NCBI GenBank assembly: GCA_963664435.2
Contig: CAXXKM010000003.1
Coordinates: 1,730,205-1,794,204, forward strand
Direction of reading: 5' to 3'
Length of the DNA: 64,000 bases
DNA from: Longimicrobiales bacterium
GTDB lineage: Bacteria; Gemmatimonadota; Gemmatimonadetes; Longimicrobiales; Gaopeijiaceae
Shown here: positions 7,080-58,759 of the stretch, piece after piece
Numbering within the stretch: position 1 is the first letter of the stretch
Layout of the letters: every line of letters begins with the position of its first letter
Translations under genes and position numbers: made by a program
The notes under the pieces: model-generated
The model's input: only the letters and a program-made list of their open reading frames with translations
What the model was told of the DNA's origin: nothing
The model's database searches: none

Positions 7080-9344
7080 TTGAGAATACGACACAGCCAT
7101 GCCCTGTTGGGCCTGATCGCGCTCGCGTGCGGCGGGGGTGCCGCTCCCATGCCTCCGGTGGCCGCCGACCCGCCCGGGCCGGAGAGGGAGCCCGTCGAGC
7201 TCGCGGACGCGCCGGCGCCCCCCGCAGAAGCGGCAGCTCCCGCGCCCCCGGCGCCGCCCGCTGCCGCTGTCGCCCCAGCGCAGGTCGCCGGCCTCGACAC
7301 CGTGCGCGCCGGACGTTTCGACAACGGGCGCATGTGGACCTTCGAGAACCCGCCCTCCGACTACCTGCGCGGCACCTACGGCATCGACGCGGACTCGGTC
7401 TGGTTCCGCCGCGCCCGGCTGGGCGCGCTGCGCATCCCCGGATGTTCGGCCTCCTTCGTGTCCGGCGAAGGGCTGGTGCTGACCAACCATCACTGCGCGC
7501 GCGAGCACATCTCCGCGGTGTCCCGGGAGGGAGAGAGCCTGCTGGACGACGGGTTCTACGCGGAGAGCATGGAAGAAGAGCGGACGATCGCGGAATTCGA
7601 GGCCGATCGGCTCATCGCGATCCGCGACGTGACGGCGGAGATGGACGCCGCCCTCGAGGGCATCAACGAGCCCCAGGCCCGCTCGCAGGCGCGCGAGTCC
7701 GCCGAGGAGGAGATCGCGGCCGGCATCTCCGAGGAATACGGGGGCGAGGACGCCGGCTTTGAAGTGGAAATGGTCTCGCTCTACAACGGCGGACGCACCT
7801 CGGCCTACATCTTCCGGCGCTACACCGACGTGCGCATGGTGATGGCGCCCGAGCTGTCCGTCGGCTATTTCGGCGGTGACCCGGACAACTTCACCTATCC
7901 GCGCTACGCCCTCGACTTCAGCTTCCTGCGCGTCTACGAGGACGGCGATCCACTCGACACGAGCGAGAACTTCTTCCGCTGGAGCGAGACCGGGGTGGAG
8001 CGCGGCGATGCCGTGTTCATGATCGGCAATCCCGGCTCCACCAGCCGCATCCAGACCGTCGCGGAGCTCGAATTCCGGCGCGACGTCTCCGACAAGGGGC
8101 TGCTGGCCTTCGTCAACAACCGCATCGACGCGCTCGAAGCCTTCTACGAAATGGACCCGGAGGCGGGCGAGGCGATGGACCTGCGCAACTCCATCTTCTC
8201 GCTGATCAACACGCAGGAGGCCTACGGGGGAATCCTGCGCGGGCTGCACGACCCGGTGATCCTGGCGAAGCGCCGCGACCAGGAGCGGGCGTTCCAGGAG
8301 GCCCTGGAAGCCGACCCGGAACTCGAGGCGGAGTACGGCGGGCTGATCGCTCGGATGGCCGAGCTGCAGGAACAGAAGGCCGGGCAGGCCGGCGGTTTCG
8401 GGTCCTTCCTGGCCTTCGCCAGCCCCGACTACGAGAGCGCGGCGCTGTCACGCGCGCTCTTCGCCTTCCAGTACGCCAACGGATCGCGCGCCGGAGCGCC
8501 CGCCGAGGCGCTCGAGGGGGTGATGGAGTCGCTTAGGGAAGTGCCGGATCAGCCGCCGGCGCTGCAGGAGCTGCTGCTGGCCGCCCGCCTGCGCGACATC
8601 GAGGCGAGCTACGGGGCCGATTCCCCGCTTGCCACCAGCCTGCTCGGCGGACGCAGTGCCGAGGATGTCGCCGCCTCCATCGTGGCCGAAAGCGTGCTCG
8701 CGGACTCGGCGCGGGCGGTCGAGGCCGTCCCGAGCGGTGGCGTGGGAATGGGTGACCCGGCCATGCAGCTGTTCGGCACCCTCATCTCCGGCATTGGCCC
8801 CTTCCAGCAGGCGCTCGGGCCCATCTCCGCCCAGGAGGAGCAGATCGCGGCGGCACTGGGGCGGGCGCGCTTCGAGGTCTACGGGACCGACGCCCCGCCC
8901 GACGCCACCTTCTCGCTGCGCATCTCCGACGGCGTGGTCTCCGAGTACGAGTACAACGGCACCTTCGCCCCGGTGGTGACCACCTTCTACGGCCTCTACG
9001 ACCGGCACTACTCCCATGTCTCCGGGGGGACGGGGGACGGCGAGTGGGACCTGCCCGAGCGCTGGCTCGACCCGCCGGGAGATCCTGATCTGTCCACGCC
9101 GATGAACTTCGTGTCCACCAACGACATCATCGGCGGAAACTCGGGCTCGCCCCTGGTCAACGCGGGCCTGGAACTGGTGGGGCTGGCCTTCGACAGCAAC
9201 ACCGAGGGCCTCTCCGGCGAGTACATCTTCCTGACCGACCGCGCGCGCGCCGTTTCGGTGGACGTGCGCGGCATCCTCGAGGCGCTCGAGGAGGTCTACC
9301 TGGCCGAGCGCATCGTGGAGGAGCTGCGGGGCGGAGGGAACTGA
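7080..9344 (+). CDS. S46 family dipeptidyl peptidase (DPP7/DPP11-like), lipoprotein
   Basis: GRMWTF, CSASFVSGEGLVLTNHHC, FGGDPDNFTYPR, PDATFSLRIS and NDIIGGNSGSP motifs; LALAC-type lipobox. Confidence 0.9.
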   Translation: MRIRHSHALLGLIALACGGGAAPMPPVAADPPGPEREPVELADAPAPPAEAAAPAPPAPPAAAVAPAQVAGLDTVRAGRFDNGRMWTFENPPSDYLRGTYGIDADSVWFRRARLGALRIPGCSASFVSGEGLVLTNHHCAREHISAVSREGESLLDDGFYAESMEEERTIAEFEADRLIAIRDVTAEMDAALEGINEPQARSQARESAEEEIAAGISEEYGGEDAGFEVEMVSLYNGGRTSAYIFRRYTDVRMVMAPELSVGYFGGDPDNFTYPRYALDFSFLRVYEDGDPLDTSENFFRWSETGVERGDAVFMIGNPGSTSRIQTVAELEFRRDVSDKGLLAFVNNRIDALEAFYEMDPEAGEAMDLRNSIFSLINTQEAYGGILRGLHDPVILAKRRDQERAFQEALEADPELEAEYGGLIARMAELQEQKAGQAGGFGSFLAFASPDYESAALSRALFAFQYANGSRAGAPAEALEGVMESLREVPDQPPALQELLLAARLRDIEASYGADSPLATSLLGGRSAEDVAASIVAESVLADSARAVEAVPSGGVGMGDPAMQLFGTLISGIGPFQQALGPISAQEEQIAAALGRARFEVYGTDAPPDATFSLRISDGVVSEYEYNGTFAPVVTTFYGLYDRHYSHVSGGTGDGEWDLPERWLDPPGDPDLSTPMNFVSTNDIIGGNSGSPLVNAGLELVGLAFDSNTEGLSGEYIFLTDRARAVSVDVRGILEALEEVYLAERIVEELRGGGN

Positions 9345-46678: not shown

Positions 46679-46741
46679 TGGCGGCGTGTCCGGCCCCGAA
46701 TGGTGCAAATCCCAAGACGTGATAACGGACAGGATACCAGG

Positions 46742-47893
46742 ATGGAGCGACCGAGGACGCTCAGCGCGAGTTTCGTCAAGACAGTCCGGCGGCCCGGCCG
46801 ATACGGAGACGGACGGGGAGGCTACGGGCTGTCGCTGCTGGTCAAGCCCACATCGACGGGACGGATCAGCAGGACGTGGGCGCAGCGCCTCTACATCAAC
46901 GGCAAGGCCGTGAACCTGGGTCTGGGCGCGTATCCGGTGGTGACGTTGAAGGAGGCGAGGGCCAAGGCGCTTGAGAATCGGCGAATGCTGGCGCGGGGGA
47001 TGGACCCCAGGAGCGGCGGCATGCCGACCTTCGCGCGAGCGGCCGAGAAGGTGATTGCGATCCACAGGGCGAACTGGAAGCCGGGTGGTGACACCGAGCA
47101 GCAGTGGAGGGCCAGCCTGCGCGATTATGTCCACCCGAAGATCGGGCACAAGACGGTGAACAAGATCACGACGACGGACGTGATGGCCGTCCTGCTGCCG
47201 ATCTGGAACGAGAAGCGGGTGACGGCGACGCGGGTGCGCAACAGGATTTCGGCGGTGATGAGGTGGGCCGTCGCGAAGGAGTACCGGGAGGGGAATCCGG
47301 CCGGCGACACCATCGCGGCCGCACTTCCCAAGAACGGGGTCCCCAAGGTCCACCATCGCGCATTGCCTCACGCCCAGGTCGCGCAGGCGCTGGCCAGAGT
47401 GCGTGCAAGCACGTCACAACCCACTACGAAACTGGCATTCGAGTTTCTCGTGCTCACCGCGTCCAGATCGGGCGAGGCCCGCAGTGCGAAATGGACCGAC
47501 ATCGACTTCAGGGCCGCCACATGGACCGTGCCGGGCATACGCATGAAGATGGGACGCGAGCATCGGGTGCCGTTGTCTTCACGTGCCCTCGAGGTGCTCG
47601 CCCAGGCGCGCCGGCGATGTAACGGATCCGACCTGGTATTCCCCTCTCCGGCAGGCCGCAAGCTGACCGGCAACACACTCTCTCAGCTCTGCCAACGGCT
47701 TGAGATCGCAGCGGTTCCGCACGGCTTCCGCTCCTCGTTCCGCGACTGGTGCGCCGAGCGCGGCGTACCCCGCGAGGTCGCCGAATCCGCGCTCGCGCAT
47801 GCGGTCAAGGGCGTCGAGGGAGCATACCTGCGAACCGACCTCTTCGAGCGGCGGCGAGAGGTCATGGAAGCGTGGGGTGACTACGTGCGGTGA
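46742..47893 (+). CDS. P4-like tyrosine integrase with arm-binding domain
   Basis: PGRYGDGRGGYGLSL and LGLGAYPVVTLKEAR (arm domain); TASRSGE (R), MKMGREHRVPLS, PHGFRSSFRDW (HxxR), LAH and AY catalytic residues all present. Confidence 0.92.
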   Translation: MERPRTLSASFVKTVRRPGRYGDGRGGYGLSLLVKPTSTGRISRTWAQRLYINGKAVNLGLGAYPVVTLKEARAKALENRRMLARGMDPRSGGMPTFARAAEKVIAIHRANWKPGGDTEQQWRASLRDYVHPKIGHKTVNKITTTDVMAVLLPIWNEKRVTATRVRNRISAVMRWAVAKEYREGNPAGDTIAAALPKNGVPKVHHRALPHAQVAQALARVRASTSQPTTKLAFEFLVLTASRSGEARSAKWTDIDFRAATWTVPGIRMKMGREHRVPLSSRALEVLAQARRRCNGSDLVFPSPAGRKLTGNTLSQLCQRLEIAAVPHGFRSSFRDWCAERGVPREVAESALAHAVKGVEGAYLRTDLFERRREVMEAWGDYVR

Positions 47894-47894
47894 C

Positions 47895-47990
47895 CGTGAG
47901 TCATATTCCAGGCGCATAACCATAGTGATAACAACACCGGCTATGCACTCATAACATACTGTTATATTGTGACTTATAAGTAGTTTGTGC
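47895..47990. mobile_element. Putative att/recombination site downstream of the integrase
   Basis: AT-rich tract with 12-bp-spaced ataac repeats (gcataac catagtgataac), also echoed upstream of int (gtgataac at ~46719); ends where surface-protein coding sequence begins. Confidence 0.5.
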
Positions 47991-50900
47991 CGGGGAGTAT
48001 ATCCGCTCGTCCGCAGTGGTCGGCAACGTGGTTGCGGCCGACGCCATGATGAGCGGCGGCGACGGCCAGCCCGAAACGCTGGCAGGCGTTACGGTCACGC
48101 TGGGCGGTGAGCACGCCATGGGCGAGACCATGGAGACCGACGAGACCGGCGGCTTCGCGTTCACCGGGCTCCGGGCCGGCACCTACACGGTCACGATCAG
48201 CGACTATCCGGAGGACGTCTCCTTCGAGACGGTGATGGTCGAGGTAGCGGTCGAGGTCGGCGATGTCGGCCAGGCCGACTTCACGGGCCACTTCATCCGC
48301 ACCTCCGCGGTCGAGGGCCAGGTGATCATCGAAGGCGAGGGCCTTGCTGGGGTGACGGTTACCCTGAGCGGCGGTCCCGCCGACGAGAGCTACACCATCA
48401 TGACCGACGCCGACGGCATGTACCGGTTCGAGGAATTGCGTCCCGGCGCCTACACGGTCTCGATCTCTGACTTCGACGCGCGCGACTACGAGTTCGCGTC
48501 CACGTCCCAAGACGTGAACGTGGATCTCGATGAGACCAGCACCGTGTCGTTCACCGGCGTCCTGCTCCGCACCTCCGGCATCAGCGGCCGGGTGAGCGTC
48601 GAGGGCATGGGCCTCGGCGAGATCACGGTCACGCTGGCGGGCGCGGACGACCGCACCGCGATGACCGACGCGGGCGGCCAGTACTCCTTCGCGGGCTTGG
48701 CGGCCGGCGACTACACGGTCTCGATCGCGGTCGACAGCGACGCCTACGTCTTCGAGTCGATGAGCACGGACGTGACGGTCGGCGACGACGAGTCGGCGAT
48801 CATTAACTTCGAGGGCGCGCACGCGCGCACCGCGAGCGTGTCCGGCATGGCGTACGTTGACGAGGCGACCAAGAACGACATGTTCGACGAGGGCGAGCAT
48901 CCGCTGGCGCACGCCGGTCTTCCGGTGGTGCTGGTGGGCCCGGGCGTCAACGAGCAGCGGGTGAGCCTCACCGACTCGACCGGCGCGTTCTCCTTCACAG
49001 GCCTCCGCGCCGGCCCGTACCAGTTGGTCGTGACCATCAACGCCACGGTCGCCGCGGCTCTCGCGGCCAACGACTTGGCTTACGGCGGACCCGGCGAGGG
49101 CTACGCGGTCGCCCTCGGTGTCGGCGAGGCTGTGACGCAGTCGGTTCCGTTCGACATCACGCACACCAGGGTCAACTTCACAGCCTCGCTGAGGAGCGGT
49201 GAAGAGATGGGTGCCGCGCTTCCCGGCGCGATCGTCGATTTCTTCTCGGACGCGGCCGGTGAGACCAAGATCGGCAGCGGCATGACCGGCGAAGAAGGCT
49301 CGGTGATGATCCGGGTCGCGCGCGCCGGCACCAGCGGCAACATGGTCCACGCGAGCGTCTCCGCCGACGGCTACCATGTGGCCGACGGCATGACGGTCGT
49401 GTCGTGGAACCCGCAGTACAACATGGCCGCGGGCGCCAACGAGAACGACATCGTCAACCTGAACGTCGACGTGGCCATCAGCGGTGCCACCGTCACCACC
49501 GAGTACGGTGGCGGCGACACGCTCGCCAACTGGGCCATCAGCGTCATGGCAGGCGAAGACTCGGTCGCAGGCGCGCCGGAGAAGCTGGACACAGCCGGCG
49601 TCGCCGCGTTCACGACCACCGTGGGAGCCGACGACCTGCCGGCGACCTTCACCATCGCCGTCGACGACGACCAGGCCAACACGCTGGACGGCGGCGAGAG
49701 CTACGACGGTGGCTCGGTCGAGTACACCCACACCGGCCTCATGCTGGCGGGCACCCAGAACGCCGACATGATCGAGGTGGCGTTCACGACCCAGACCCTC
49801 AAGGTCTACGTGCACCACGAGCTTGATCAAGTCGAAGGCTACACCGGCAACATCCTCGGCGGTGACGAGAGGGACGGTAAGGGCGCCGACCGCAAGGTCG
49901 ATGTCGACCTCCGCTACATCGACGACTCCGGACGCTCGCGCGCGTTCACGGCTGCGGACAGCATCAGCGAACCGAAAGACAATGGTGACGGCGGTGCGTG
50001 GGTCTTCAGCAACGTGCCGGCCGACATGAACGTGATCGCCAACGCGTCGAAGGCCGACAACACCGACCTCAGCATCATGATCCTCGATGAGGGCGGGCAT
50101 GCCGATGAGCTCGCCGCCTACACCGGCACGGATGCCAACGGCATCACCGGCGGCCACTTCGGTGCGCAGGGCGGCTACAGCCACACGGTTTCGCTCTGCC
50201 CGCTGCAGGACGAGAACCCGCAGGACCACGACGCTTGCTCGTCGTTCGCCTACGTCAGCACGCACTCGGTGAGCGGGCTGATCTGGAAGAACGTGGTCGT
50301 CAAGAGCACCGAGACTGCCAACGATGACAGATTCTCGTTCGGCAAGACCGACGGAGTCGACGTATATGATCCCGAGGGTGCCCCCCCCACGTTCGTAGCC
50401 GGCATTTCCGTCAGCCTGAGCCCGGTCGAGGGCAAGAATCTCGCGGGTGACGAGGAGTCCGCCACCACTACGGAGAAGCCGGTCCGGGGGCCGGGTGAGA
50501 CCGCCAAGGGCAATGAAGTGCTCGACGAGACCCACCAGTTCGCCTTCAACAACATCGCGGCCGGCGTCTACAAGGCCAGCGTGACGGACGGCTGGCGGGC
50601 GAGGCTGGGTCCGAAGGGCGCCACGGCCATGGTCGGCAACGCCTTCAACCCGCTCGCGGGTGACGTCTCACTCGACGTCACGCCGGCGACGACCACCGTC
50701 TACGGCTACGTGAAGGACGCGGAGGATTTCCCCGTGGACAGCGTGAACGTGAACGTGAACGGTGTTGTAGCGATGTCCGACGTACACGGCCGCTACATCG
50801 CGGAGTACGTGCCGAACGTGGCGAGCCGCAAAATCGGCACCGTGACGCACACGAACAGCGTCTTCGTCGAGACCGCCCATGGAGGAAGCGGGGAGACGCG

Positions 50901-52290
50901 GAACATCCAGGCCTTTGCCGCAAACAGCCGGATCCGGCAGGACGTCGATCTTTCGGGCGTAGGCACGATCGCCTCGATCAGCGGTACGGTCACCGCGTCC
51001 GGCAGCGGCGCGCCGATCGCCGGTGCGGAGATCAAGGTTGACGGCAATGCCCCGACCAACGCGGCCAAGACCGGTGCGAACAGGGGCAAGCTCGTGACGG
51101 GCGCCGACGGCACCTACACGGCAGAATTCGCGGCCAAGGACCTCGGCGAGAGCGCCGATGTGACCGTGTCGAAGGACGGCATGAGCTTCGCGCCTGCGAC
51201 GCTGTCTGTTCCGGCCCACGCCGGATCGGCGGTCTCGGGCATCAACTTCACCGGCTTCCAGCATGCGACGATTTCGGGCCGGGTGAGAGGTCCGGACGGC
51301 AACGCCATGGGTGGCGTTACGGTCACGGCCACGAACGTGGTCGCAGGCGCAGCCGGGGACGACGTCTTGAGCACCAGCAACGCGAGAGGCACCTTCGTGC
51401 TCAGCGTACCGTTCGGCGCCTATGACATCGAAGCGTCGTTGGCGAACCACAGCTTCAAGTATCCGAACGACAACCAGAGGGTGAGCGTCGCACCGGGTCA
51501 GAGCTTGAACTTCGGCGCGATCGAGGCGCTGTCGCCTGGGGCTAGGAACCTCAGCGCATCGCGTGCCCGCACGGAGGACGACGAGTCCACCGAGGACATC
51601 GACGAATCCGAACGCTACGATGGCAACATCAGCGTGAAGTTCGTCGACAGCGCCACGGACGTGCCCGAAGGGTTCACCAGCCCCGCCACGCACGAGGTGC
51701 AGCACAACTACACCGGCACCTTCACGGATGCGAGCGCAACCTTGGTGACGCGCGACAGCCTCGGCACTACGGTCAATGTCCCGGGCAGCTACACGTTCAC
51801 GTCGCCGGGCGATACCACCTTCATGGTTCGAGTGGTGACGTCGGTCGCACACCCCACCGATTCGGACCTTACCTTCACGATCGAATCCGATCCGGTCACG
51901 GTCGGCGCGGTCGATCCGTCGACCAGCGGTGTCACTGCGAGTCGTGCGGCGACTGCCGATACCACCGTTGCCGACACCCTCACCGTCACTTGGGACGCCG
52001 ATAGCAACACCAGTTCCGAGTTCCGGATCATGGTTGAGGTCGCCTCCGAAAACACTGGTTCGACTTTGTGGCTCGTCGCCTCAGGTGGAGAGCCCGCCAC
52101 CATCGCAAGCACCACCAGGAGTTGGAGCTTGGAGTGGATTCATGACTTCACCGCGAGCTGGAACACGGTGGGTGGAACGGCGATTGCGATCACGGACGTC
52201 GAACTCAACAAGCCGTTCAGAGTTCGCGTCGACTCGAGACAGGGCAGTGCTGGCGACTTCACCGAGGGTACGCCAGTAGATGTCCCATAA
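47989..52290 (+). CDS. Large Ig-like (Cna-B/SdrD-B/carboxypeptidase-regulatory-like) repeat surface protein, 5'-truncated
   Basis: Repeated GVTVTL.G...TD..G.Y.F..L..G.YTV.I modules. The frame opens mid-linker (AGEYIRSSAVVGNV) after TAA at 47977, with no signal peptide or RBS. Confidence 0.8.
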   Translation, partial: AGEYIRSSAVVGNVVAADAMMSGGDGQPETLAGVTVTLGGEHAMGETMETDETGGFAFTGLRAGTYTVTISDYPEDVSFETVMVEVAVEVGDVGQADFTGHFIRTSAVEGQVIIEGEGLAGVTVTLSGGPADESYTIMTDADGMYRFEELRPGAYTVSISDFDARDYEFASTSQDVNVDLDETSTVSFTGVLLRTSGISGRVSVEGMGLGEITVTLAGADDRTAMTDAGGQYSFAGLAAGDYTVSIAVDSDAYVFESMSTDVTVGDDESAIINFEGAHARTASVSGMAYVDEATKNDMFDEGEHPLAHAGLPVVLVGPGVNEQRVSLTDSTGAFSFTGLRAGPYQLVVTINATVAAALAANDLAYGGPGEGYAVALGVGEAVTQSVPFDITHTRVNFTASLRSGEEMGAALPGAIVDFFSDAAGETKIGSGMTGEEGSVMIRVARAGTSGNMVHASVSADGYHVADGMTVVSWNPQYNMAAGANENDIVNLNVDVAISGATVTTEYGGGDTLANWAISVMAGEDSVAGAPEKLDTAGVAAFTTTVGADDLPATFTIAVDDDQANTLDGGESYDGGSVEYTHTGLMLAGTQNADMIEVAFTTQTLKVYVHHELDQVEGYTGNILGGDERDGKGADRKVDVDLRYIDDSGRSRAFTAADSISEPKDNGDGGAWVFSNVPADMNVIANASKADNTDLSIMILDEGGHADELAAYTGTDANGITGGHFGAQGGYSHTVSLCPLQDENPQDHDACSSFAYVSTHSVSGLIWKNVVVKSTETANDDRFSFGKTDGVDVYDPEGAPPTFVAGISVSLSPVEGKNLAGDEESATTTEKPVRGPGETAKGNEVLDETHQFAFNNIAAGVYKASVTDGWRARLGPKGATAMVGNAFNPLAGDVSLDVTPATTTVYGYVKDAEDFPVDSVNVNVNGVVAMSDVHGRYIAEYVPNVASRKIGTVTHTNSVFVETAHGGSGETRNIQAFAANSRIRQDVDLSGVGTIASISGTVTASGSGAPIAGAEIKVDGNAPTNAAKTGANRGKLVTGADGTYTAEFAAKDLGESADVTVSKDGMSFAPATLSVPAHAGSAVSGINFTGFQHATISGRVRGPDGNAMGGVTVTATNVVAGAAGDDVLSTSNARGTFVLSVPFGAYDIEASLANHSFKYPNDNQRVSVAPGQSLNFGAIEALSPGARNLSASRARTEDDESTEDIDESERYDGNISVKFVDSATDVPEGFTSPATHEVQHNYTGTFTDASATLVTRDSLGTTVNVPGSYTFTSPGDTTFMVRVVTSVAHPTDSDLTFTIESDPVTVGAVDPSTSGVTASRAATADTTVADTLTVTWDADSNTSSEFRIMVEVASENTGSTLWLVASGGEPATIASTTRSWSLEWIHDFTASWNTVGGTAIAITDVELNKPFRVRVDSRQGSAGDFTEGTPVDVP

Positions 52291-52300
52291 CCCCTTCAAC

Positions 52301-52399
52301 ACCATCAGCCTGGCTGACTAACCGTCAGCCAGGCTGATGGTCGCAGGCCGCGGGACAGCGTCACCCCCCGTTCGGGACTCCCGAACGGGGGGTGACGCT
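52301..52399. terminator. Two long perfect hairpins between the surface-protein genes
   Basis: accatcagcctggctgac-taacc-gtcagccaggctgatggt (18 bp stem) and agcgtcaccccccgttcggga-c-tcccgaacggggggtgacgct (21 bp inverted repeat). Confidence 0.7.
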
Positions 52400-52464
52400 C
52401 ACCAGACGACCGGTAAGCAAATGACTATTCCACCGCGCATTTCACCTGACGCGGAGAAGGCACG

Positions 52465-55400
52465 ATGATTCCGAATCAGCCTGGCGTACCCGTCCGTTCC
52501 CTCTTGGCGGCCGCAGTGGTCTGCGCGCTCCTGGTTCCATCTGCGGGCGTACAGGCTGAGGAGCCATATGTGGGCGGTTCGCGTGCGGGCGTCCCGTCGG
52601 TTGTGGAATCCCCAGTGGCGAGCGACGTGGCCGTCCCCCCCACGACCTCGATTTCATGGAGTTGGATCGGGTCCACACAGAACTCTGCCAGCGTCGTCAT
52701 CCGTTTCTCGCAGAGCGTGACCGGCTTCACGGTCGACGACATCAACATCACGTGCACGCACCCGACCGCGGCGTGTGCAGTGGCCGATCCGCTGGACAGT
52801 GACGAAGGCAGGAGGTTTGTCGTCACGATGAGGATGCCGGAACAATATGACGGCCTGGTGTTCTTCCATATCCCTGGGAACGTGGTGCAGAACAGCTCGC
52901 AGGAGGGGAATACCCCGTCGAGAGTGGTCAACATCAACGTGGACACCAGGGGCCCTGTAGTCAGCGACGCGAAGGTCAACGGCGACGAAGTCGTCATCGC
53001 CTTCGACGAAGACCTCGATGAGGATTTCGTCCCATCGACCAGCTATTTCCAAGTCGCCTTCGGAAATAGCACCGTGTCACACGACGTCAAGACCGTGTCC
53101 CGGGTCGAAGTGGCCACCCGCGATGTGTTCCTGCTTCTGGCAAGCCCCGTCGATACGCTCGACGCGGTTCGGGTGTTCTACGACGACCGCGGCGCCGACG
53201 CGCTTCGGGATCTGGCCGGCAATCGCGCGTTCGGCTTCGACAGGGCGGTGCGAAACGTCACCGGGGAGGCGCGCACCGGGGTGCCCGGAGAGCCGCGCAA
53301 GCTCACGGCGGAGGCCGACGGCCCCGACGCGATCATACTGGAGTGGGAGGCGCCGAGTTCGAATGGCGGTCGCGAGATCACCGGGTACCTCATCGAGTGG
53401 TCGGAAGACGGCCGCGACCCGTGGTCGACTCTGGAGCGCAATACCCGGAACACCGACACCAGCTACCGCGACGACAAGGATCTCACCGGGGGCGTCACGC
53501 GGCACTACAGGGTGTCGGCCATCAACTTCAACGGGGCGGGTGACCCCTCGAACGTCGCCGACGCCACCACCGAGGATGTCCTGCCGGACGCGGCTCGGTC
53601 GTTGACGGCGCAGGCCCGGGGGATGTCCGCCATCGAACTGAGGTGGCGCGCCCCCTCCTCCAGCGGCTCGACGCCGGTCACCGGCTACCGCATCGAATGG
53701 TCGCGGGCCGGACGCAGCCCCTGGACGCGGCTCGAGGCCGACACCGAGTCCACGGCCACCACCTACACCGACGACGAGCTCAGCCCCGCCACCACGCGCC
53801 ACTACCGCGTAGCAGCGATCAACCGGGCGGGTCTGGGCCCGTGGTCCAACACCGCCCAGGCGACCACCGACGCCACCCCTCCGAGCCCGCCCATAGCACT
53901 GAGCGTGGTTCCGGGCGCGAGGAGAACCGACGAACTCCTCCTCACCTGGTCCGCCCCGCCCGACGACGGCGGCAGCCCGATCACCGGCTACCGCATCGAG
54001 AGGTCCGCCACCGGCGGCGGCGGCTGGATCATCCATGTGCCCGGCACGGGCAGCACGGCCACCATCTACACCGACAGCAATCTCGGCCCCGCCGCCACCT
54101 GGTTCTATCGCGTGTCCGCGATCAACGGCGTGGGTACGGGACGCGCCTCCAACGTGGCCCAAGGCACCACCGATGCGGCGCCTCCCGGGCAGCCGCAGAA
54201 CGTACGCGCCCGCGGAACGGGACCGAACAGCGTCCTCCTCGTCTGGGACCGGCCGGAGAGCGACGGAGGGGCGCGCATCACCGGCTACAGCATCCGGATG
54301 CTCGGGCCCAACGATCGCTCCTGGATCATCATCCGTCCCAACACGGAGGAGACGACAACGACCTTTACGCACACCGGGCTTGACCCAGTGACCCGGTACC
54401 AGTACCAGGTCGCGGCCATCAACCGCGTGGGCGCCGGGCAGTGGTCGCTCACGGGGGCGGCCCTCACGCACGCGGACTTCGCCGCGGCCCCGACTGGGCT
54501 GACGGCCCGGGCAGTCGGCACCTCGCGCATCGACCTGTCGTGGAACGCGCCGCGCTACACCGGCGGCGTCTCGATCTTCGGCTACCGCGTCGAGGCCTCC
54601 GACGACGAGGGCGCGACCTGGAACATCATCCGCCGCAACACGAACTCGGCGACGACGGCGTTCTCGGACGTGAACCTGAGGCCCGCAACCACCCGCCACT
54701 ACCGGGTCGCCGCCATCAACCTCGCGGGGGTGGGGCCGTTCTCGAACGTGGCGCGGGCGACCACCGAGGCGACTGTTCCGAGCGTGCCGCGACGTCTCAA
54801 CGCCGATGCGGCCGGCACCTCGCAGATCGTCCTCTCCTGGCAGGCACCCGCGGACGACGGGGGCGCCCGCATCACCGGCTACCGCATCGAGGTCACGGCC
54901 GACGGGGGCGGGAGCTGGGAGGACTTGGTGGCCGCCACGCGCAGCACGGCCACCGTCTACACGCACAGCGGGCTGGCGCCGGCCTCGACGCGCCATTACC
55001 GCGTCTCGGCGATCAACCGGATCGGCGTGGGCAACGCGTCGCGGGTCGCGGGCTCCACCACGGACGCGACGGTGCCCGACGCGCCCACCGGGCTGGTCGC
55101 CACCGATGTCTCGCCCACCCAGATCGACCTGTTCTGGCTCGCGCCCGACTACAATGGCGGTGCGCCCATCACCGGGTACCGCATCGAGGTGTCGGAGACG
55201 GGCGCCGCCTGGGCGGACCTGGTCACCAACACCGAGTCCACGGTTGCCACCTTTTCGCATACCGCCCTGCAGCCGGGCAGCGTGCGCCACTACCGGGTGT
55301 CGGCGATCAACCGGGCGGGCACCGGCGCGGCGTCTGCGAGCGCAACGGCGGCGACCGACGACCCCGTGCAGCGGGCGGGCCGGCTCAACACCCGCGTCCT

Positions 55401-56763
55401 GCCGCAGGTGGCCGCGGCGATGACCTCGAGCACCGTCTCGGCGATCGCAAACCGCGTCAACGCGGTGGCCAACGGGATGGGCATGGAGCAGAGCGTGGAG
55501 ACGAACGGACTGTCGTCGATGGCCGCGAGCCTGTCCGCGCCGGGTCCGGGCGGCCTCGGCCTCGGCCAGAATGACGGCGCCGGCTTGGCCGCCCTATTCG
55601 GCGGCACCTCATTCCTGATGCCGTTCGGCACCCCGGACGCGCCGCAGCAGTCCGCGACCGGCATGCAGATGGCGAGCTGGGGTGCGGGCGAGTACCACTA
55701 CATGGGCGAACCCGGCGCGAGCGAGCTCGACTGGAAGGGCAACATGGTGAGCGCCCACGTCGGCGTGGACATGCGCGTGGGGCCGGACATCCTGGCGGGT
55801 GTCGCGGGCTCGTACAACTCGGGCTCCTTCGACTTCACCGACAAGACCGGCGCCCGACCGGTGGCCGGCACCTACGGCACCACCATGACCAGCGCGCATC
55901 CTTACGTGGCCTGGTTCCCCGGCGCGCGCGGCGCCTCGGTGTGGGGTTCGGCCGGGATCGGCCGGGGCGACATCGAGGTCGACGACGAGCGGGAAGGGCT
56001 CCGCACCAGCCCCGCCAGCATGATGACGGGGGCGGGAGGCGCGAGCTACCAGCTGTTCACGAGCGGCATCGGTGGCGTGAGCCTCAAGGCCGAGGGCTGG
56101 AGCGGCCGGTTCGAGGTCGAGGGCACCGAGCAGATCGGCACGGTGACGCTCGACATGCAGCGCGCCAAGCTTGCCCTTGAGTTGACGCAAGGCTTCCGCA
56201 CCGACACGGGGCAGGAGATGGCGTTCGTGCTCGAGGGCGGGATGCGCTACGACAACGGCGACGGCATCAACGGCACCAGCGCGGAGGTCGGCGGCGGGCT
56301 CCGCTACACGAACTCCGGGCTGGGATTGACCGCGGAGGGCCGCGGCCGGTTCGTCATCTCGGCGCGCCAAGGCTACGAGGAATGGGGCCTCGGCGGCATG
56401 CTCATGTTCGACCCGGCGGCCCCGGGCCAGGGGCTGCAGGTCCGGGTGGCGCCCGCGTACGGCGACCACAGGAGCGGGGTCAACCAGCTCTGGGAGCGCG
56501 GGGTGTCCGACGCGGTGGGCGGCCAGGACCTGGGCATGGGCCCCAACGTGGACGGCGAAGTGGCCTACGGCATCGCCGGCTTCCAGGGGACGCCCTACAG
56601 CGGCTTCTACCTCGGCAAGAGCGGGACGCGCGCCTTCTCGAGCGGCGTGCGCTACGATCTGGGCGCGGGGGTCGGGCTGCGGCTGGAAGGCACGCGGCGC
56701 GAGAGCGCGCTGGGTGCGGCCCAGCACTCGGTGGGCGTCCGCGGACGGATCAAGCTCCGGTAG
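52465..56763 (+). CDS. Fibronectin type III repeat autotransporter-like adhesin
   Basis: Signal peptide, Ig-like and SwmB-like modules, 7 FN3 repeats (WxAP..GG..ITGYRIE...TRHYRVSAIN..G), C-terminal beta-barrel-like domain (GMRYDNGDG, EVGGGLRY, YEEWG). Confidence 0.85.
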   Translation: MIPNQPGVPVRSLLAAAVVCALLVPSAGVQAEEPYVGGSRAGVPSVVESPVASDVAVPPTTSISWSWIGSTQNSASVVIRFSQSVTGFTVDDINITCTHPTAACAVADPLDSDEGRRFVVTMRMPEQYDGLVFFHIPGNVVQNSSQEGNTPSRVVNINVDTRGPVVSDAKVNGDEVVIAFDEDLDEDFVPSTSYFQVAFGNSTVSHDVKTVSRVEVATRDVFLLLASPVDTLDAVRVFYDDRGADALRDLAGNRAFGFDRAVRNVTGEARTGVPGEPRKLTAEADGPDAIILEWEAPSSNGGREITGYLIEWSEDGRDPWSTLERNTRNTDTSYRDDKDLTGGVTRHYRVSAINFNGAGDPSNVADATTEDVLPDAARSLTAQARGMSAIELRWRAPSSSGSTPVTGYRIEWSRAGRSPWTRLEADTESTATTYTDDELSPATTRHYRVAAINRAGLGPWSNTAQATTDATPPSPPIALSVVPGARRTDELLLTWSAPPDDGGSPITGYRIERSATGGGGWIIHVPGTGSTATIYTDSNLGPAATWFYRVSAINGVGTGRASNVAQGTTDAAPPGQPQNVRARGTGPNSVLLVWDRPESDGGARITGYSIRMLGPNDRSWIIIRPNTEETTTTFTHTGLDPVTRYQYQVAAINRVGAGQWSLTGAALTHADFAAAPTGLTARAVGTSRIDLSWNAPRYTGGVSIFGYRVEASDDEGATWNIIRRNTNSATTAFSDVNLRPATTRHYRVAAINLAGVGPFSNVARATTEATVPSVPRRLNADAAGTSQIVLSWQAPADDGGARITGYRIEVTADGGGSWEDLVAATRSTATVYTHSGLAPASTRHYRVSAINRIGVGNASRVAGSTTDATVPDAPTGLVATDVSPTQIDLFWLAPDYNGGAPITGYRIEVSETGAAWADLVTNTESTVATFSHTALQPGSVRHYRVSAINRAGTGAASASATAATDDPVQRAGRLNTRVLPQVAAAMTSSTVSAIANRVNAVANGMGMEQSVETNGLSSMAASLSAPGPGGLGLGQNDGAGLAALFGGTSFLMPFGTPDAPQQSATGMQMASWGAGEYHYMGEPGASELDWKGNMVSAHVGVDMRVGPDILAGVAGSYNSGSFDFTDKTGARPVAGTYGTTMTSAHPYVAWFPGARGASVWGSAGIGRGDIEVDDEREGLRTSPASMMTGAGGASYQLFTSGIGGVSLKAEGWSGRFEVEGTEQIGTVTLDMQRAKLALELTQGFRTDTGQEMAFVLEGGMRYDNGDGINGTSAEVGGGLRYTNSGLGLTAEGRGRFVISARQGYEEWGLGGMLMFDPAAPGQGLQVRVAPAYGDHRSGVNQLWERGVSDAVGGQDLGMGPNVDGEVAYGIAGFQGTPYSGFYLGKSGTRAFSSGVRYDLGAGVGLRLEGTRRESALGAAQHSVGVRGRIKLR

Positions 56764-56779
56764 GGGAGGGAGGAGCGTC

Positions 56780-57862
56780 ATGGCGACCAAGCGGCCGACC
56801 GCGCCCGGCGCGCGCGCGGCCCGGCCGAACGGGGAAGCGCGCTACGTCGGCTGGCAGTGCCGCCTGTACCCGAACCGGCCGCAGGCGCGCCTGCTCGCCC
56901 TGTGCCGGGAGGGGCTCCGCGAGCTGTCGAACGCCCTGCTCGGCGCCTCGAACCTGCAGTATTCCCAGACGGGCCGGCACATGACCGGCAAGGAGTTCCG
57001 CGCGGCCGCCCAGGACTGGTGGCGCCGCAGGCCGAACCGCGACCCGTTCCCGTCCACCGCCATCTACCAGATCGCGACCGACATGCACGGAGCGTTCCGC
57101 AACTGGCACACCAAGCCACGCGCGCGCCAGGGGCTGCCGAGGTTCAAGCCCGAGGGACGCGCCCCCGGGATCTACGTGGCCAGCCACGGCACCCGCTTCG
57201 ACGGCAACCGCGTCCGCTTGCCGAAGTTCGGCTGGATGCGCTGGCTGGGCGGGAGCCTGCCCGCTGGCCGGCTCGAGGGCCCGAAGAGCCGCACGACGCT
57301 CGGCATGGTGTACGGCCGGGTCTGGCGCGACGCCGGCGAGCGCTGGATGTTCTCGTGCGTGTTCGAGTGCGGCCCGGTCGATGCCGCCGCGCCCACGGCG
57401 GAGGTCGCCGTGGTGCGCCAGGACGGCCCGGGCATCGCCGTCGAACTCGACGGCAGGCCCATCGAAGTCCCGGGACCGGACGAGCGCTCCGACGCCGACA
57501 GGCAGCGGATGAGGCGGCTCCAGCGCCGCTTGAGCCGCTGCACCGAAGACTCGAAGCGGCGGGCCCGCGTTCTCGAACGGTTCCGCAATGTCGCCAGGAA
57601 CATCAGGAACCGCGAGCGCGACCGCCACCACAAGCTCACCACCATCGTCGTCCTCGCCGCCGGCACGATCATCGTCGAGGGCGTCAGCAGCGAGATGCTG
57701 CGCCAGCTCGAGTACAAGGCCCGTTGGCACGGGCGCCAACTGCAGGTACGGCGAGGCCCGCCGGAACCGGAGGCGCGCAAGCGCCCCGAACGCGCGCGGA
57801 GACCGGTAACTCCGGTCCGGTCCGTGAAGCGCGAATCGTCGAACGAAGGCCGGAGAGTTTGA
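56780..57862 (+). CDS. TnpB-derived protein, predicted nuclease-dead (TldR-like)
   Basis: RLYPNRPQ, AFRNW..GLPRFK, VRLPKFGWMR, RRLQRRLSR, HHKLTT, IIVEG and RQLEYKARWHG motifs. RuvC-I Asp is replaced; the zinc finger and RuvC-III are absent. AGGAG RBS. Confidence 0.8.
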   Translation: MATKRPTAPGARAARPNGEARYVGWQCRLYPNRPQARLLALCREGLRELSNALLGASNLQYSQTGRHMTGKEFRAAAQDWWRRRPNRDPFPSTAIYQIATDMHGAFRNWHTKPRARQGLPRFKPEGRAPGIYVASHGTRFDGNRVRLPKFGWMRWLGGSLPAGRLEGPKSRTTLGMVYGRVWRDAGERWMFSCVFECGPVDAAAPTAEVAVVRQDGPGIAVELDGRPIEVPGPDERSDADRQRMRRLQRRLSRCTEDSKRRARVLERFRNVARNIRNRERDRHHKLTTIVVLAAGTIIVEGVSSEMLRQLEYKARWHGRQLQVRRGPPEPEARKRPERARRPVTPVRSVKRESSNEGRRV

Positions 57863-57920
57863 GTTCGCCGAAGGCCGGAACCGACTCAATACCCGCCGGA
57901 CGGGCCCAACCGGCCCGTCC
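57750..57920 (+). ncRNA. Putative omegaRNA/guide RNA overlapping the tnpB-like 3' end
   Basis: gtgaagcgcgaatc (SVKRES, resembling the typical TnpB SxKQE tail), ggaaccg end, 14 unique nt, then a 9-bp hairpin. Boundaries are approximate. Confidence 0.45.
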
Positions 57921-58403
57921 CGCGCGACCACCACCACGACGAGGAGGCACCCACCAGCCCCGGCTCACGCAACCTGCGCGGCGCGGCTCTCGAAGTTTCC
58001 CGCCGGCCGGGTGGCGCGGTTACCGAACGTTCACGGATCCACCGTGGACACCAAAGTGCGGCGCCCGTCAGCCACGCAGTCAGCGACCCGCAGGGTGATC
58101 GACCCGCCGCCCTCCGACGGTCCCATCTCGCACGCGCCCCGGAGTGGCAACGTCGCTGGACGCGGGCAGGAGCATACGACCGGCTCCGGTTGGCCCCGGC
58201 GGATCGATACGGCAGAGAGGTTTGGGCGCGCTACGCGTGGTTCCGACGACGTGCCGAACCTGATCACTCGATCCGGTCGTCTGTTTCCTTCTCCCACCGG
58301 CCCTTGTCCCGGCGGCGCCGCCGTTGTTTCCGTGGCTTGCGCGACGGACGTTGCCCCACCCTCCGCTTCGGCGGCTTCCGTCCCTTGGGTGGGCGCCACT
58401 TCT

Positions 58404-58759
58404 TCACGCCGTCTTCCCGGCGGAGGCTCCGCGCCGACCCGCCTTCTCCAAGCAGCGGACGACCGACGTGGCCACGGTCTCGGCGTACCCGGCGTCCGGA
58501 GCTGTCCGTGCGTGCCTGAACCAGAGTTCTGCCGGGGTCTTCATGCCGCTCCTGGCCTGCCGCGCTGCCGCGCCAAGACCACGTCCAGGGATTCCAGCGC
58601 GGCACCGTGGTCCTGGTTTTGGACCAGCCGATCGGCACGCACGACGTTGCGGTCGTTTCGGATGTCGGGGGGGAGTTCCTCGCCTGCCGCCACCGTTGGT
58701 CCCGCTACAATGGCAAGACCCAACGCCGTCCCGGCCATCCACGAATTCGATCTGCTCAT
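58404..58759 (-). pseudogene. Frameshifted remnant of a secreted helical (TPR-like) protein
   Basis: Signal peptide plus ELPPDIRNDRNVVRADRLV..GAALESLD in one frame, continuing TPAELWFRHAR..VVRCLEKAGRRG in another. Confidence 0.55.

Follow-up and report, generated by a model that had tools for sequence, protein, structure and literature searches.

Our analysis points to a nuclease-dead TnpB that is probably a TldR-like repressor, one that would keep rival surface-protein cassettes silent in the manner of fliC-TldR. This reading of the 64,000-nucleotide stretch of DNA analyzed here (hereafter the window) draws on a dead TnpB gene, its linkage to surface-protein genes, a conserved RNA, guides that match their targets and covary with them, the escape of the linked gene copy, and metatranscriptome RNA, all of which we observed. 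The window's own genome is referred to as G000, and its contigs as C1, C2 and C3. The features concerned are as follows, with the basis of each call in brackets.

46700..47893, + strand: tyrosine integrase (Pfam PF00589/PF22022/PF13356)
48016..52290, + strand: 5'-truncated large CarboxypepD-repeat surface lipoprotein gene, of the target gene family (Pfam PF13620, six matches; paralogs)
52465..56763, + strand: Fn3-repeat surface protein, encoded by the cassette's second gene (Pfam PF00041, seven matches)
56780..57862, + strand: nuclease-dead TnpB (TldR-like), 360 aa (profiles, alignment, structure match)
57740..57894, + strand as judged from homology: omegaRNA-derived guide RNA, overlapping the TnpB gene at its 3' end (RNA contigs, conservation, covariance model)
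57749..57763, + strand: 5' hairpin whose loop GGCC (57755-57758) forms a pseudoknot with the GGCC of a repeat (covariation)
57844..57853, + strand: repeat 1, CGAAGGCCGG (alignment of two-unit RNAs)
57854..57868, + strand: spacer 1, AGAGTTTGAGT(TCGC) (genome match, covariation)
57869..57878, + strand: repeat 2, CGAAGGCCGG, the scaffold end (conservation, pseudoknot)
57879..57894, + strand: spacer 2, the main guide, AACCGACTCAA(TACCC) (genome match, covariation)
57893..57924, + strand: GC-rich hairpin just past the RNA end, with no U-tract (folds of 10 relatives)

The TnpB open reading frame matches PF01385 at 31.1 bits, with the NCBIfam TnpB models scoring under their cut-offs, and its AlphaFold model (pLDDT 80) is matched by Foldseek to ISDra2 TnpB (8h1j) with an E-value of 3.8e-21. 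The RuvC-I Asp is replaced, Glu300 of RuvC-II is retained, and RuvC-III is deleted along with the zinc finger. Relatives in an intermediate clade, P0035 and P0039, carry a D-to-A change in RuvC-I that represents an earlier step of loss, and the nearest intact relatives, P0042 and P0045 (33-38% identity to the window protein), retain the D-E-D residues. The dead family is found in 16 of the 19 genomes of the genus and divides into three clades: A, that of the window; B, about 53% identical; and C, in which the zinc finger is retained. A profile search of G000, which is 96% complete, returned neither a Y1 transposase (PF01797) nor a resolvase (PF00239). At the sequence level the locus shows what is expected of a TldR, namely an inactivated RuvC, no tnpA in G000, a lasting link to a non-transposon gene, an omegaRNA-like scaffold at the gene's 3' end and a fixed guide to the 5' region of a relative of the linked gene; the D-E-D triad, transposase and variable flank-derived guide of an IS200/IS605 or IS607 transposon TnpB are absent. 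No active relative was recovered together with its locus for reading the ancestral TAM; the candidate locus, L074, is broken. There (7100-8720), a broken alphaproteobacterial TnpB close to the active relative P0042 lies behind what by eye resembles an IS1595-type transposase. G005 and G112, the two complete genomes of the genus in which neither a dead TnpB nor the RNA was found, hold many lipoprotein paralogs (37 and 9 matches, respectively) with different 5'UTRs. Contigs L041 (G123) and L244 (G185) are near-identical to contigs of the window genus yet binned in other taxa, and were probably mis-binned or recently transferred.

The dead TnpB frame begins 17 nt past the Fn3-repeat gene, which is itself preceded by the CarboxypepD-repeat gene. 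The lipoprotein gene is present in 36 of 50 TnpB neighbourhoods, which are related and in part duplicates, and the Fn3 gene (cluster 2) is a recurrent neighbour as well, in 27 of the 50 loci; a distant dead TnpB from another family shares the lipoprotein-gene neighbour. The C-terminus of the Fn3 protein appears to be a barrel or autotransporter domain, a label that has no Pfam match. At ~70-110 nt upstream, most lipoprotein 5' ends carry a TGGCAC-N4-TTGC box, which we take to be the sigma-54 consensus; a sigma-54 gene is present in the genome. Window positions 52275-52400, which separate the lipoprotein gene from the Fn3 gene, hold two strong hairpins with sub-threshold Rfam matches only, a possible mRNA-stabilizing or attenuating element. 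In the window, the lipoprotein gene has lost its promoter and ~115 initial codons to an integrase element that stands in their place, the junction falling at 47989 by comparison with the intact copy at G000:C3:1145985. That the window's own cassette is truncated in this way counts against the repressor reading. The last 16 kb of the contig (47989-64000 of the window) form an inverted repeat of G000:C3:1129957-1145985 at 99.87% identity, in which the promoter and those ~115 codons survive in the internal copy alone; this could be a real integration allele or a contig-end assembly artefact. The intact twin of the lipoprotein gene starts at G000:C3:1146330 (minus strand) with the 5' sequence ATGAACCGTTTT, and comparison of 5' ends indicates that this start escapes the guide. 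Its cassette adjoins relaxase, integrase, ArdC and type IV secretion genes, neighbours that suggest a mobile cassette. At G000:C1:1085500-1095500, a relaxase/integrase element splits the lipoprotein gene from the Fn3 gene in the second clade-B cassette. At G000:C1:913900-914826 (L087:10401-11327), a ~300-aa gene with no Pfam match, possibly a regulator, lies between a divergent cassette promoter and a clade-B tldR, a placement that recurs in many loci.

The original prediction, made from the letters of this stretch, had described a scaffold end, and this held: the scaffold is of omegaRNA type, with its 3' end here, next to the dead TnpB. RNA-library contigs from two studies, which give neither strand nor level, cover 57740-57893 and 57742-57893 at 100% identity. 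The contig of a relative, at depth 611, spans 57747-57889 plus two bases before running into adapter, and that of a clade-B relative passes from adapter to a start at 57744. Within 55500-58500, sponge RNA contigs cover 57708-57893 only, besides one relative's 151-nt piece in the Fn3 gene; the TnpB protein gene has no RNA-contig cover, a point against the repressor reading, though it proves nothing. An RNA ending at 57868 is represented by one 161-nt contig (X1/X2, depth 2.7, starting inside the gene), possibly a single data set filed twice and weakly suggestive of a shorter RNA. Conservation runs from ~57745 to the TCAA at 57889, with variable sequence further 3'; 10 distinct two-unit clade-A RNAs keep the block up to TCAA, and 26 distinct RNAs of clade B have its homologue. 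With a covariance model made from 23 of these RNAs, copies are found in 16 of the genus's 19 genomes and in 11 of the class's 146, and Rfam returned no match over the RNA stretch at E<=5.

Folding z-scores are -2.3 for 57740-57960 and -1.1 for 57740-57894, the fold alone being weak evidence. In a hand-drawn structure, 95.9% of cells are paired and three pairs are changed on both sides, against a control inflated by related sequences. A 3-bp helix (columns 31-33/48-50) was rejected on failing at one pair, probably through misalignment. The pseudoknot with repeat 2 is kept at all four pairs in 23 of 23 rows, one pair having changed on both sides; that with repeat 1 pairs in 97.6% of cells, with one-sided changes only. 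The 3' end is laid out as repeat-spacer-repeat-spacer, and the GG(C/T)C core of repeat 1 is present in 36/36 distinct two-unit RNAs, which were selected by a pattern requiring that core. Three to four repeat-spacer units occur in the RNAs of L046, L047, L075 and L063, and in G116 the two spacer types sit on separate single-unit RNAs. L018, L025 and L032 have a partial second copy of the RNA 5' end downstream of the guide. The elements named in the prediction are largely where it put them: gtgaagcgcgaatc is present, one base to the left of the start given, at 57824-57837, and the direct repeat cgaaggccgga stands at 57844 and 57869, each copy preceding a target-matching spacer and so not incidental. 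The hairpin at 57898-57920 is likewise there, extended by folding to 57893-57924; it varies in sequence, folds strongly in the 6 closest of 10 relatives (-18 to -32 kcal/mol) and was not called as a terminator. It lies just beyond the RNA's apparent end, as its proposed role of 3' mark would have it, and is a probable 3' boundary element.

Spacer 2, the main guide, links this RNA to its putative targets. Its first 11 nt, AACCGACTCAA (57879-57889), recur directly behind the ATG of a lipoprotein paralog, G000:C1:913503 (minus strand), and TG+AACCGACTCAA has one site in G000 against 0.03 expected under an order-4 Markov model; in the RNA gene itself, spacer 2 is preceded by GG, not TG. Guides and targets change together across two genera. 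In G119 the guide AGCAGACTCAAA faces ATG-AGCAGACTCAAA (protein start MSRLK), in G118 AATAGACTCAAG faces ATG-AATAGACTCAAG, in G117 AAGAGACTCAAGA faces ATG-AAAAGACTCAAGA, and in G116 the orphan RNA AACAGACTTAA faces ATG-AACAGACTCAA, in the sole core copy with AGA among 15. Among the matches listed for the 17 genomes with a clade-A-type RNA, an exact target of at least 11 nt after TG is found in nine and a one-wobble target in two, and the other six (G106, G120, G121, G122, G123 and G124) show a mismatch or a degenerate RNA, or yielded no target; G239, G243 and G409 seem to repeat G119, G117 and G120 and were counted once in this tally. The second RNA in G118 (L043) has a mismatch at +4 and no exact target, no target was found for unit 2 in G119 (one of two such units), and in G000 three of the four MNRL-type paralogs have seed mismatches to the guide; misses of these kinds count against the repressor reading. 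At L226 in G121, where no lipoprotein target was recovered, the guide matches 12 nt at the start (MKRLKD) of a secreted amidohydrolase-like gene with two seed differences. TG precedes the spacer-2 targets in clades A and B, which suggests a short TAM ending in TG, unusually so at 2 nt, that for clade A would be the ATG start codon.

The guide's start is placed at 57879 because of changes at guide positions 2-4 and the A that precedes the guide in two RNAs; a start at 57882 behind a TAM of TGAAC was considered and given up, as 57880-57881 covary with targets. Consequently the IS-end-like motif ggaaccg, found at 57877-57883 as predicted, consists of two scaffold bases and the first five guide bases. 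The expectation that a fixed guide would point to a surface-protein gene at its 5' end held, with a different start and ~11 fixed nt. actcaatacccgcc, correctly located at 57884-57897, had been proposed as that guide; the conservation asked of it extends only to the TCAA at 57889, its last 8 nt being unconserved, and the 14-mer occurs in G000 only as its own two copies. Near matches at C3:1188113 and C3:1199779 are not at recognizable promoters or gene starts. The alternative of a guide beginning after TCAA fared no better, that stretch being unconserved and without an excess of genome matches. The absence of a target within the window, also noted at the outset, stands, the targets lying in paralogous cassettes on other contigs.

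The mechanism that we infer, from RNA binding by the protein through TAM recognition, DNA binding and repression to the role of spacer 1, would proceed as follows. The domesticated, nuclease-dead TnpB would bind a ~154-nt RNA encoded at its own 3' end, and the complex would read a TAM ending in TG, for clade A the ATG start codon. Spacer 2 would then pair with the template strand at the first codons of paralogous surface-lipoprotein genes, and the bound complex would block RNA polymerase from the targets' sigma-54-type promoters. The carrier cassette would escape its own guide, its N-terminal codons being recoded (MNRFTK, not MNRLKL), so that an incoming cassette could silence the residents and substitute its surface proteins. 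Spacer 1 would address the opposite strand at that site, whether as an alternative guide (with the repeat-1 pseudoknot and a shorter RNA) or by capturing the displaced strand. For spacer 2, bottom-strand pairing with the TAM on the promoter side is the orientation that repressed in 5'UTRs according to the part of Wiegand et al. (10.1101/2023.11.30.569447) consulted; the same part counts against the mechanism in clade B, whose main guide lies in the orientation that repressed poorly.

Escape and targeting extend across the clades. Each of the nine clade-A-linked cassette starts differs from the A guide at 4-7 positions. For clade B, the guide AACGAATCAGGG matches the TldR-free 'core' copy in its 5'UTR, on the antisense strand and after GGTTG, and TG+AACGAATCAGGG has two sites in G000, both in core-copy 5'UTRs, against 0.02 expected. 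Clade-B-linked UTRs hold the B target in 0/21 and the A target with at most one mismatch in 20/21 (a 22nd was not parsed), and the B site is present in 15/15 core copies, a class partly chosen by that site. Orphan clade-C RNAs that precede ATGAACCGTTTT cassettes have AATCGCTT, a match to the ATGAATCGCTTC class of other genomes. This pattern of matches suggests that clade A, clade B and orphan RNAs form a tiered targeting hierarchy of surface-protein cassettes. No target was found for the clade-C guides AATCGTCACC, AATCGTGAC and AATTTGGTG, the last searched genome-wide. Two tandem orphan clade-C RNAs lie upstream of the intact cassette promoter (L091, G000:C3:1146530-1146928); the guide of one matches 11 nt after the ATG of a gene, TonB-receptor-like by eye, at C1:893433, perhaps by chance, and that of the other has no target in G000.

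Core copies G000:C2:13002 and C2:54970, which lie within an inverted duplication, have TGA at codon 3 in frames that are otherwise open over ~1,770 codons. The CGA-to-TGA change falls at guide position 4, on the strand that an R-loop would displace. On a tree of 15 core copies it requires at least three changes, which may equal one gain and two losses, and a single change is allowed by 0% of bootstrap trees. A TGA core copy is present in 5/8 genomes with a clade-A-type RNA versus 0/6 without (Fisher p 0.03, the genomes being kin and not independent), and in G102, which has no clade-A-type RNA, the change occurs in another copy. Its cause may be deamination, escape or relaxed selection.

Spacer 1 is the reverse complement of target codons 3-7, on the opposite strand of the spacer-2 site. 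It has three non-self sites in G000, all of them paralog starts, against 0.06 expected, and it covaries with targets, reading AGTAGTTTGAGT where these have ACTCAA(A/G)CTACT; its 3' end also takes part in a long stem, 57836-57844/57863-57871. Clade B has the same two-spacer layout with its own site, of which 8 nt match in several genomes. Comparison of targets revealed no common TAM in front of the spacer-1 sites, a point against spacer 1 as a second true guide. On these sequence relationships, spacer 1 may be an alternative guide or a displaced-strand clamp, both about equally; a form ending at 57868 would fit the X1/X2 contig, a weak fit. A purely intramolecular role was rejected, for spacer 1 pairs with spacer 2 (-7.6 kcal/mol) but its distal bases match the target only; that pairing may serve as an extra latch. 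The same geometry raises the question of whether control could act on RNA, with the protein as a chaperone and spacer 1 pairing with the first codons of the target mRNA so as to block translation, as its antisense relation to codons 3-7 and a duplex of -16.6 kcal/mol with the target, versus -7.6 with its own spacer 2, would allow. We consider this unlikely, since clade B has the opposite polarity (its spacer 1 being sense and its spacer 2 antisense to the mRNA), the clade-A spacer 2 is sense and unable to pair with mRNA yet covaries with its target, and the match begins exactly after TG in both clades.

DNA-level repression has also to be weighed against a CAST-like use of the complex, in which the dead TnpB would mark lipoprotein genes for recombination, integration or gene conversion. 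Integrase and relaxase elements do interrupt or flank cassettes and several lipoprotein paralogs are truncated, but the integration junction in the window lies ~345 nt downstream of the guide site, no integrase is constant among the neighbours, and the escape of linked copies together with 5'-end targeting suits repression, which leaves this reading very unlikely. It is highly improbable that the complex activates or licenses sigma-54 promoters or protects target mRNA: a Cas12f-derived activator is on record (discussed in the part of Xiao et al., 10.64898/2026.09.22.753285, consulted) and an imperfect inverted repeat in the core 5'UTR spans both target sites, but the sites fall past the -24/-12 box, within the transcribed region, the site is avoided by the linked cassette, and seed-position changes and a nonsense allele accumulate in targets. 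That the guide is 57884-57897 or follows TCAA, or that a decaying scaffold matches common signal-peptide starts by chance, is hardly credible, for although MNRL/MKRL starts are common and near matches occur at the G121 amidohydrolase start and, for an orphan guide, the TonB-receptor-like start, the former placements lack targets and conservation as described above, the 13-mer TG+AACCGACTCAA has a chance of ~3e-6 in five 100-nt 5' windows, and independent guides match one gene family.

Beyond the repressor itself, we tentatively suggest, as a possibility that we would not yet favor, that the omegaRNA is a functional mini-array in which two pseudoknot registers, each presenting one guide, or a spacer-1 clamp would let one dead TnpB read both strands. 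New units would come from tandem duplication, keeping pace with changes to the target paralogs' start codons, persistent R-loops would leave the C-to-T nonsense scar, and the result would be a multi-tier arms race in a phylum, Gemmatimonadota, for which the consulted part of Makarova et al. (PMC12669027) reports no CRISPR-cas loci. By titles and the starts of abstracts, we found no account of this clade or of a two-spacer omegaRNA, which bioRxiv supplements and subscription papers may yet list; searches for TldR in Gemmatimonads returned nothing, and those for TnpB in Gemmatimonads nothing about this clade. In the part of the PMC10705468 supplementary files consulted there are no Gemmatimonad, Palauibacter, Longimicrob, fibronectin, carboxypeptidase or autotransporter entries. 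Features that appear to be new are the tandem guides on both strands, the putative use of a start codon as TAM, and the 3-4-unit mini-arrays of relatives. The system would add a TldR-type regulator in uncultured sponge symbionts, one that seems to govern which cassette of large surface lipoprotein and Fn3 adhesin-like protein comes to be displayed, several clades apparently silencing one another. A dead TnpB with a two-guide RNA that matches rival gene copies points to surface-protein cassettes engaged in a natural arms race by gene silencing. For start-codon CRISPRi, a binder of 360 aa with an apparent TG/ATG TAM and a guide to both strands would offer a compact scaffold, and as guide, TAM and targets are now specified, the system is directly testable in E. 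coli.

In type V CRISPR mini-arrays and nascent Cas12 systems arising from TnpB, repeat-spacer units derive from the RNA 3' end, as do those of the window's relatives, and the RNA described here may link the single-guide omegaRNA to the CRISPR array as a natural intermediate, which bears on the origin of Cas12 from TnpB. Type V arrays have 25-40-nt repeats processed to crRNAs, and adaptation, whereas the window RNA has 10-nt repeats in 2-4 units inside one RNA and its processing is weakly hinted, so that by its repeats it does not fall under type V CRISPR-Cas. In the IS110 bridge RNA, two RNA segments are complementary to opposite strands of one target; the protein there is unrelated, and a two-strand clamp is just one reading of spacer 1. 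With TnpB of IS200/IS605 and IS607 elements and its omegaRNA (ISDra2, ISFba1), the window system shares its fold, an RNA overlapping the gene's 3' end and a pre-guide pseudoknot; unlike these, it has lost catalytic residues and the zinc finger, no tnpA was found in G000, its guides are fixed and its repeat-spacer is duplicated. The fliC_P-associated TldR, as described in the part of Wiegand et al. (10.1101/2023.11.30.569447) consulted, likewise combines a dead TnpB and a downstream RNA and is tied to a variant surface gene, its guide directed to the 5' region of the host paralog and its own copy expressed. It has a single guide at a sigma-28 promoter with TAM GTTAT, in contrast to the two opposite-strand spacers, the target within the first codons, the apparent TAM ending in TG, the lipoprotein and Fn3 cassette, and the several clades targeting one another of the window system. 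The oppF-associated TldR, in the parts of the same study and of Xiao et al. (10.64898/2026.09.22.753285) consulted, resembles it in a short (9-11 nt) guide, targets on either strand, multiple target paralogs, a roadblock downstream of the start site and a guide folded in the apo state, and differs in having one guide, in targeting oppA of its own operon with TAM TTTAA and in belonging to Enterococcus. The window system would appear nearest to fliC_P-TldR in its logic and to oppF-TldR in its short guide and downstream roadblock.
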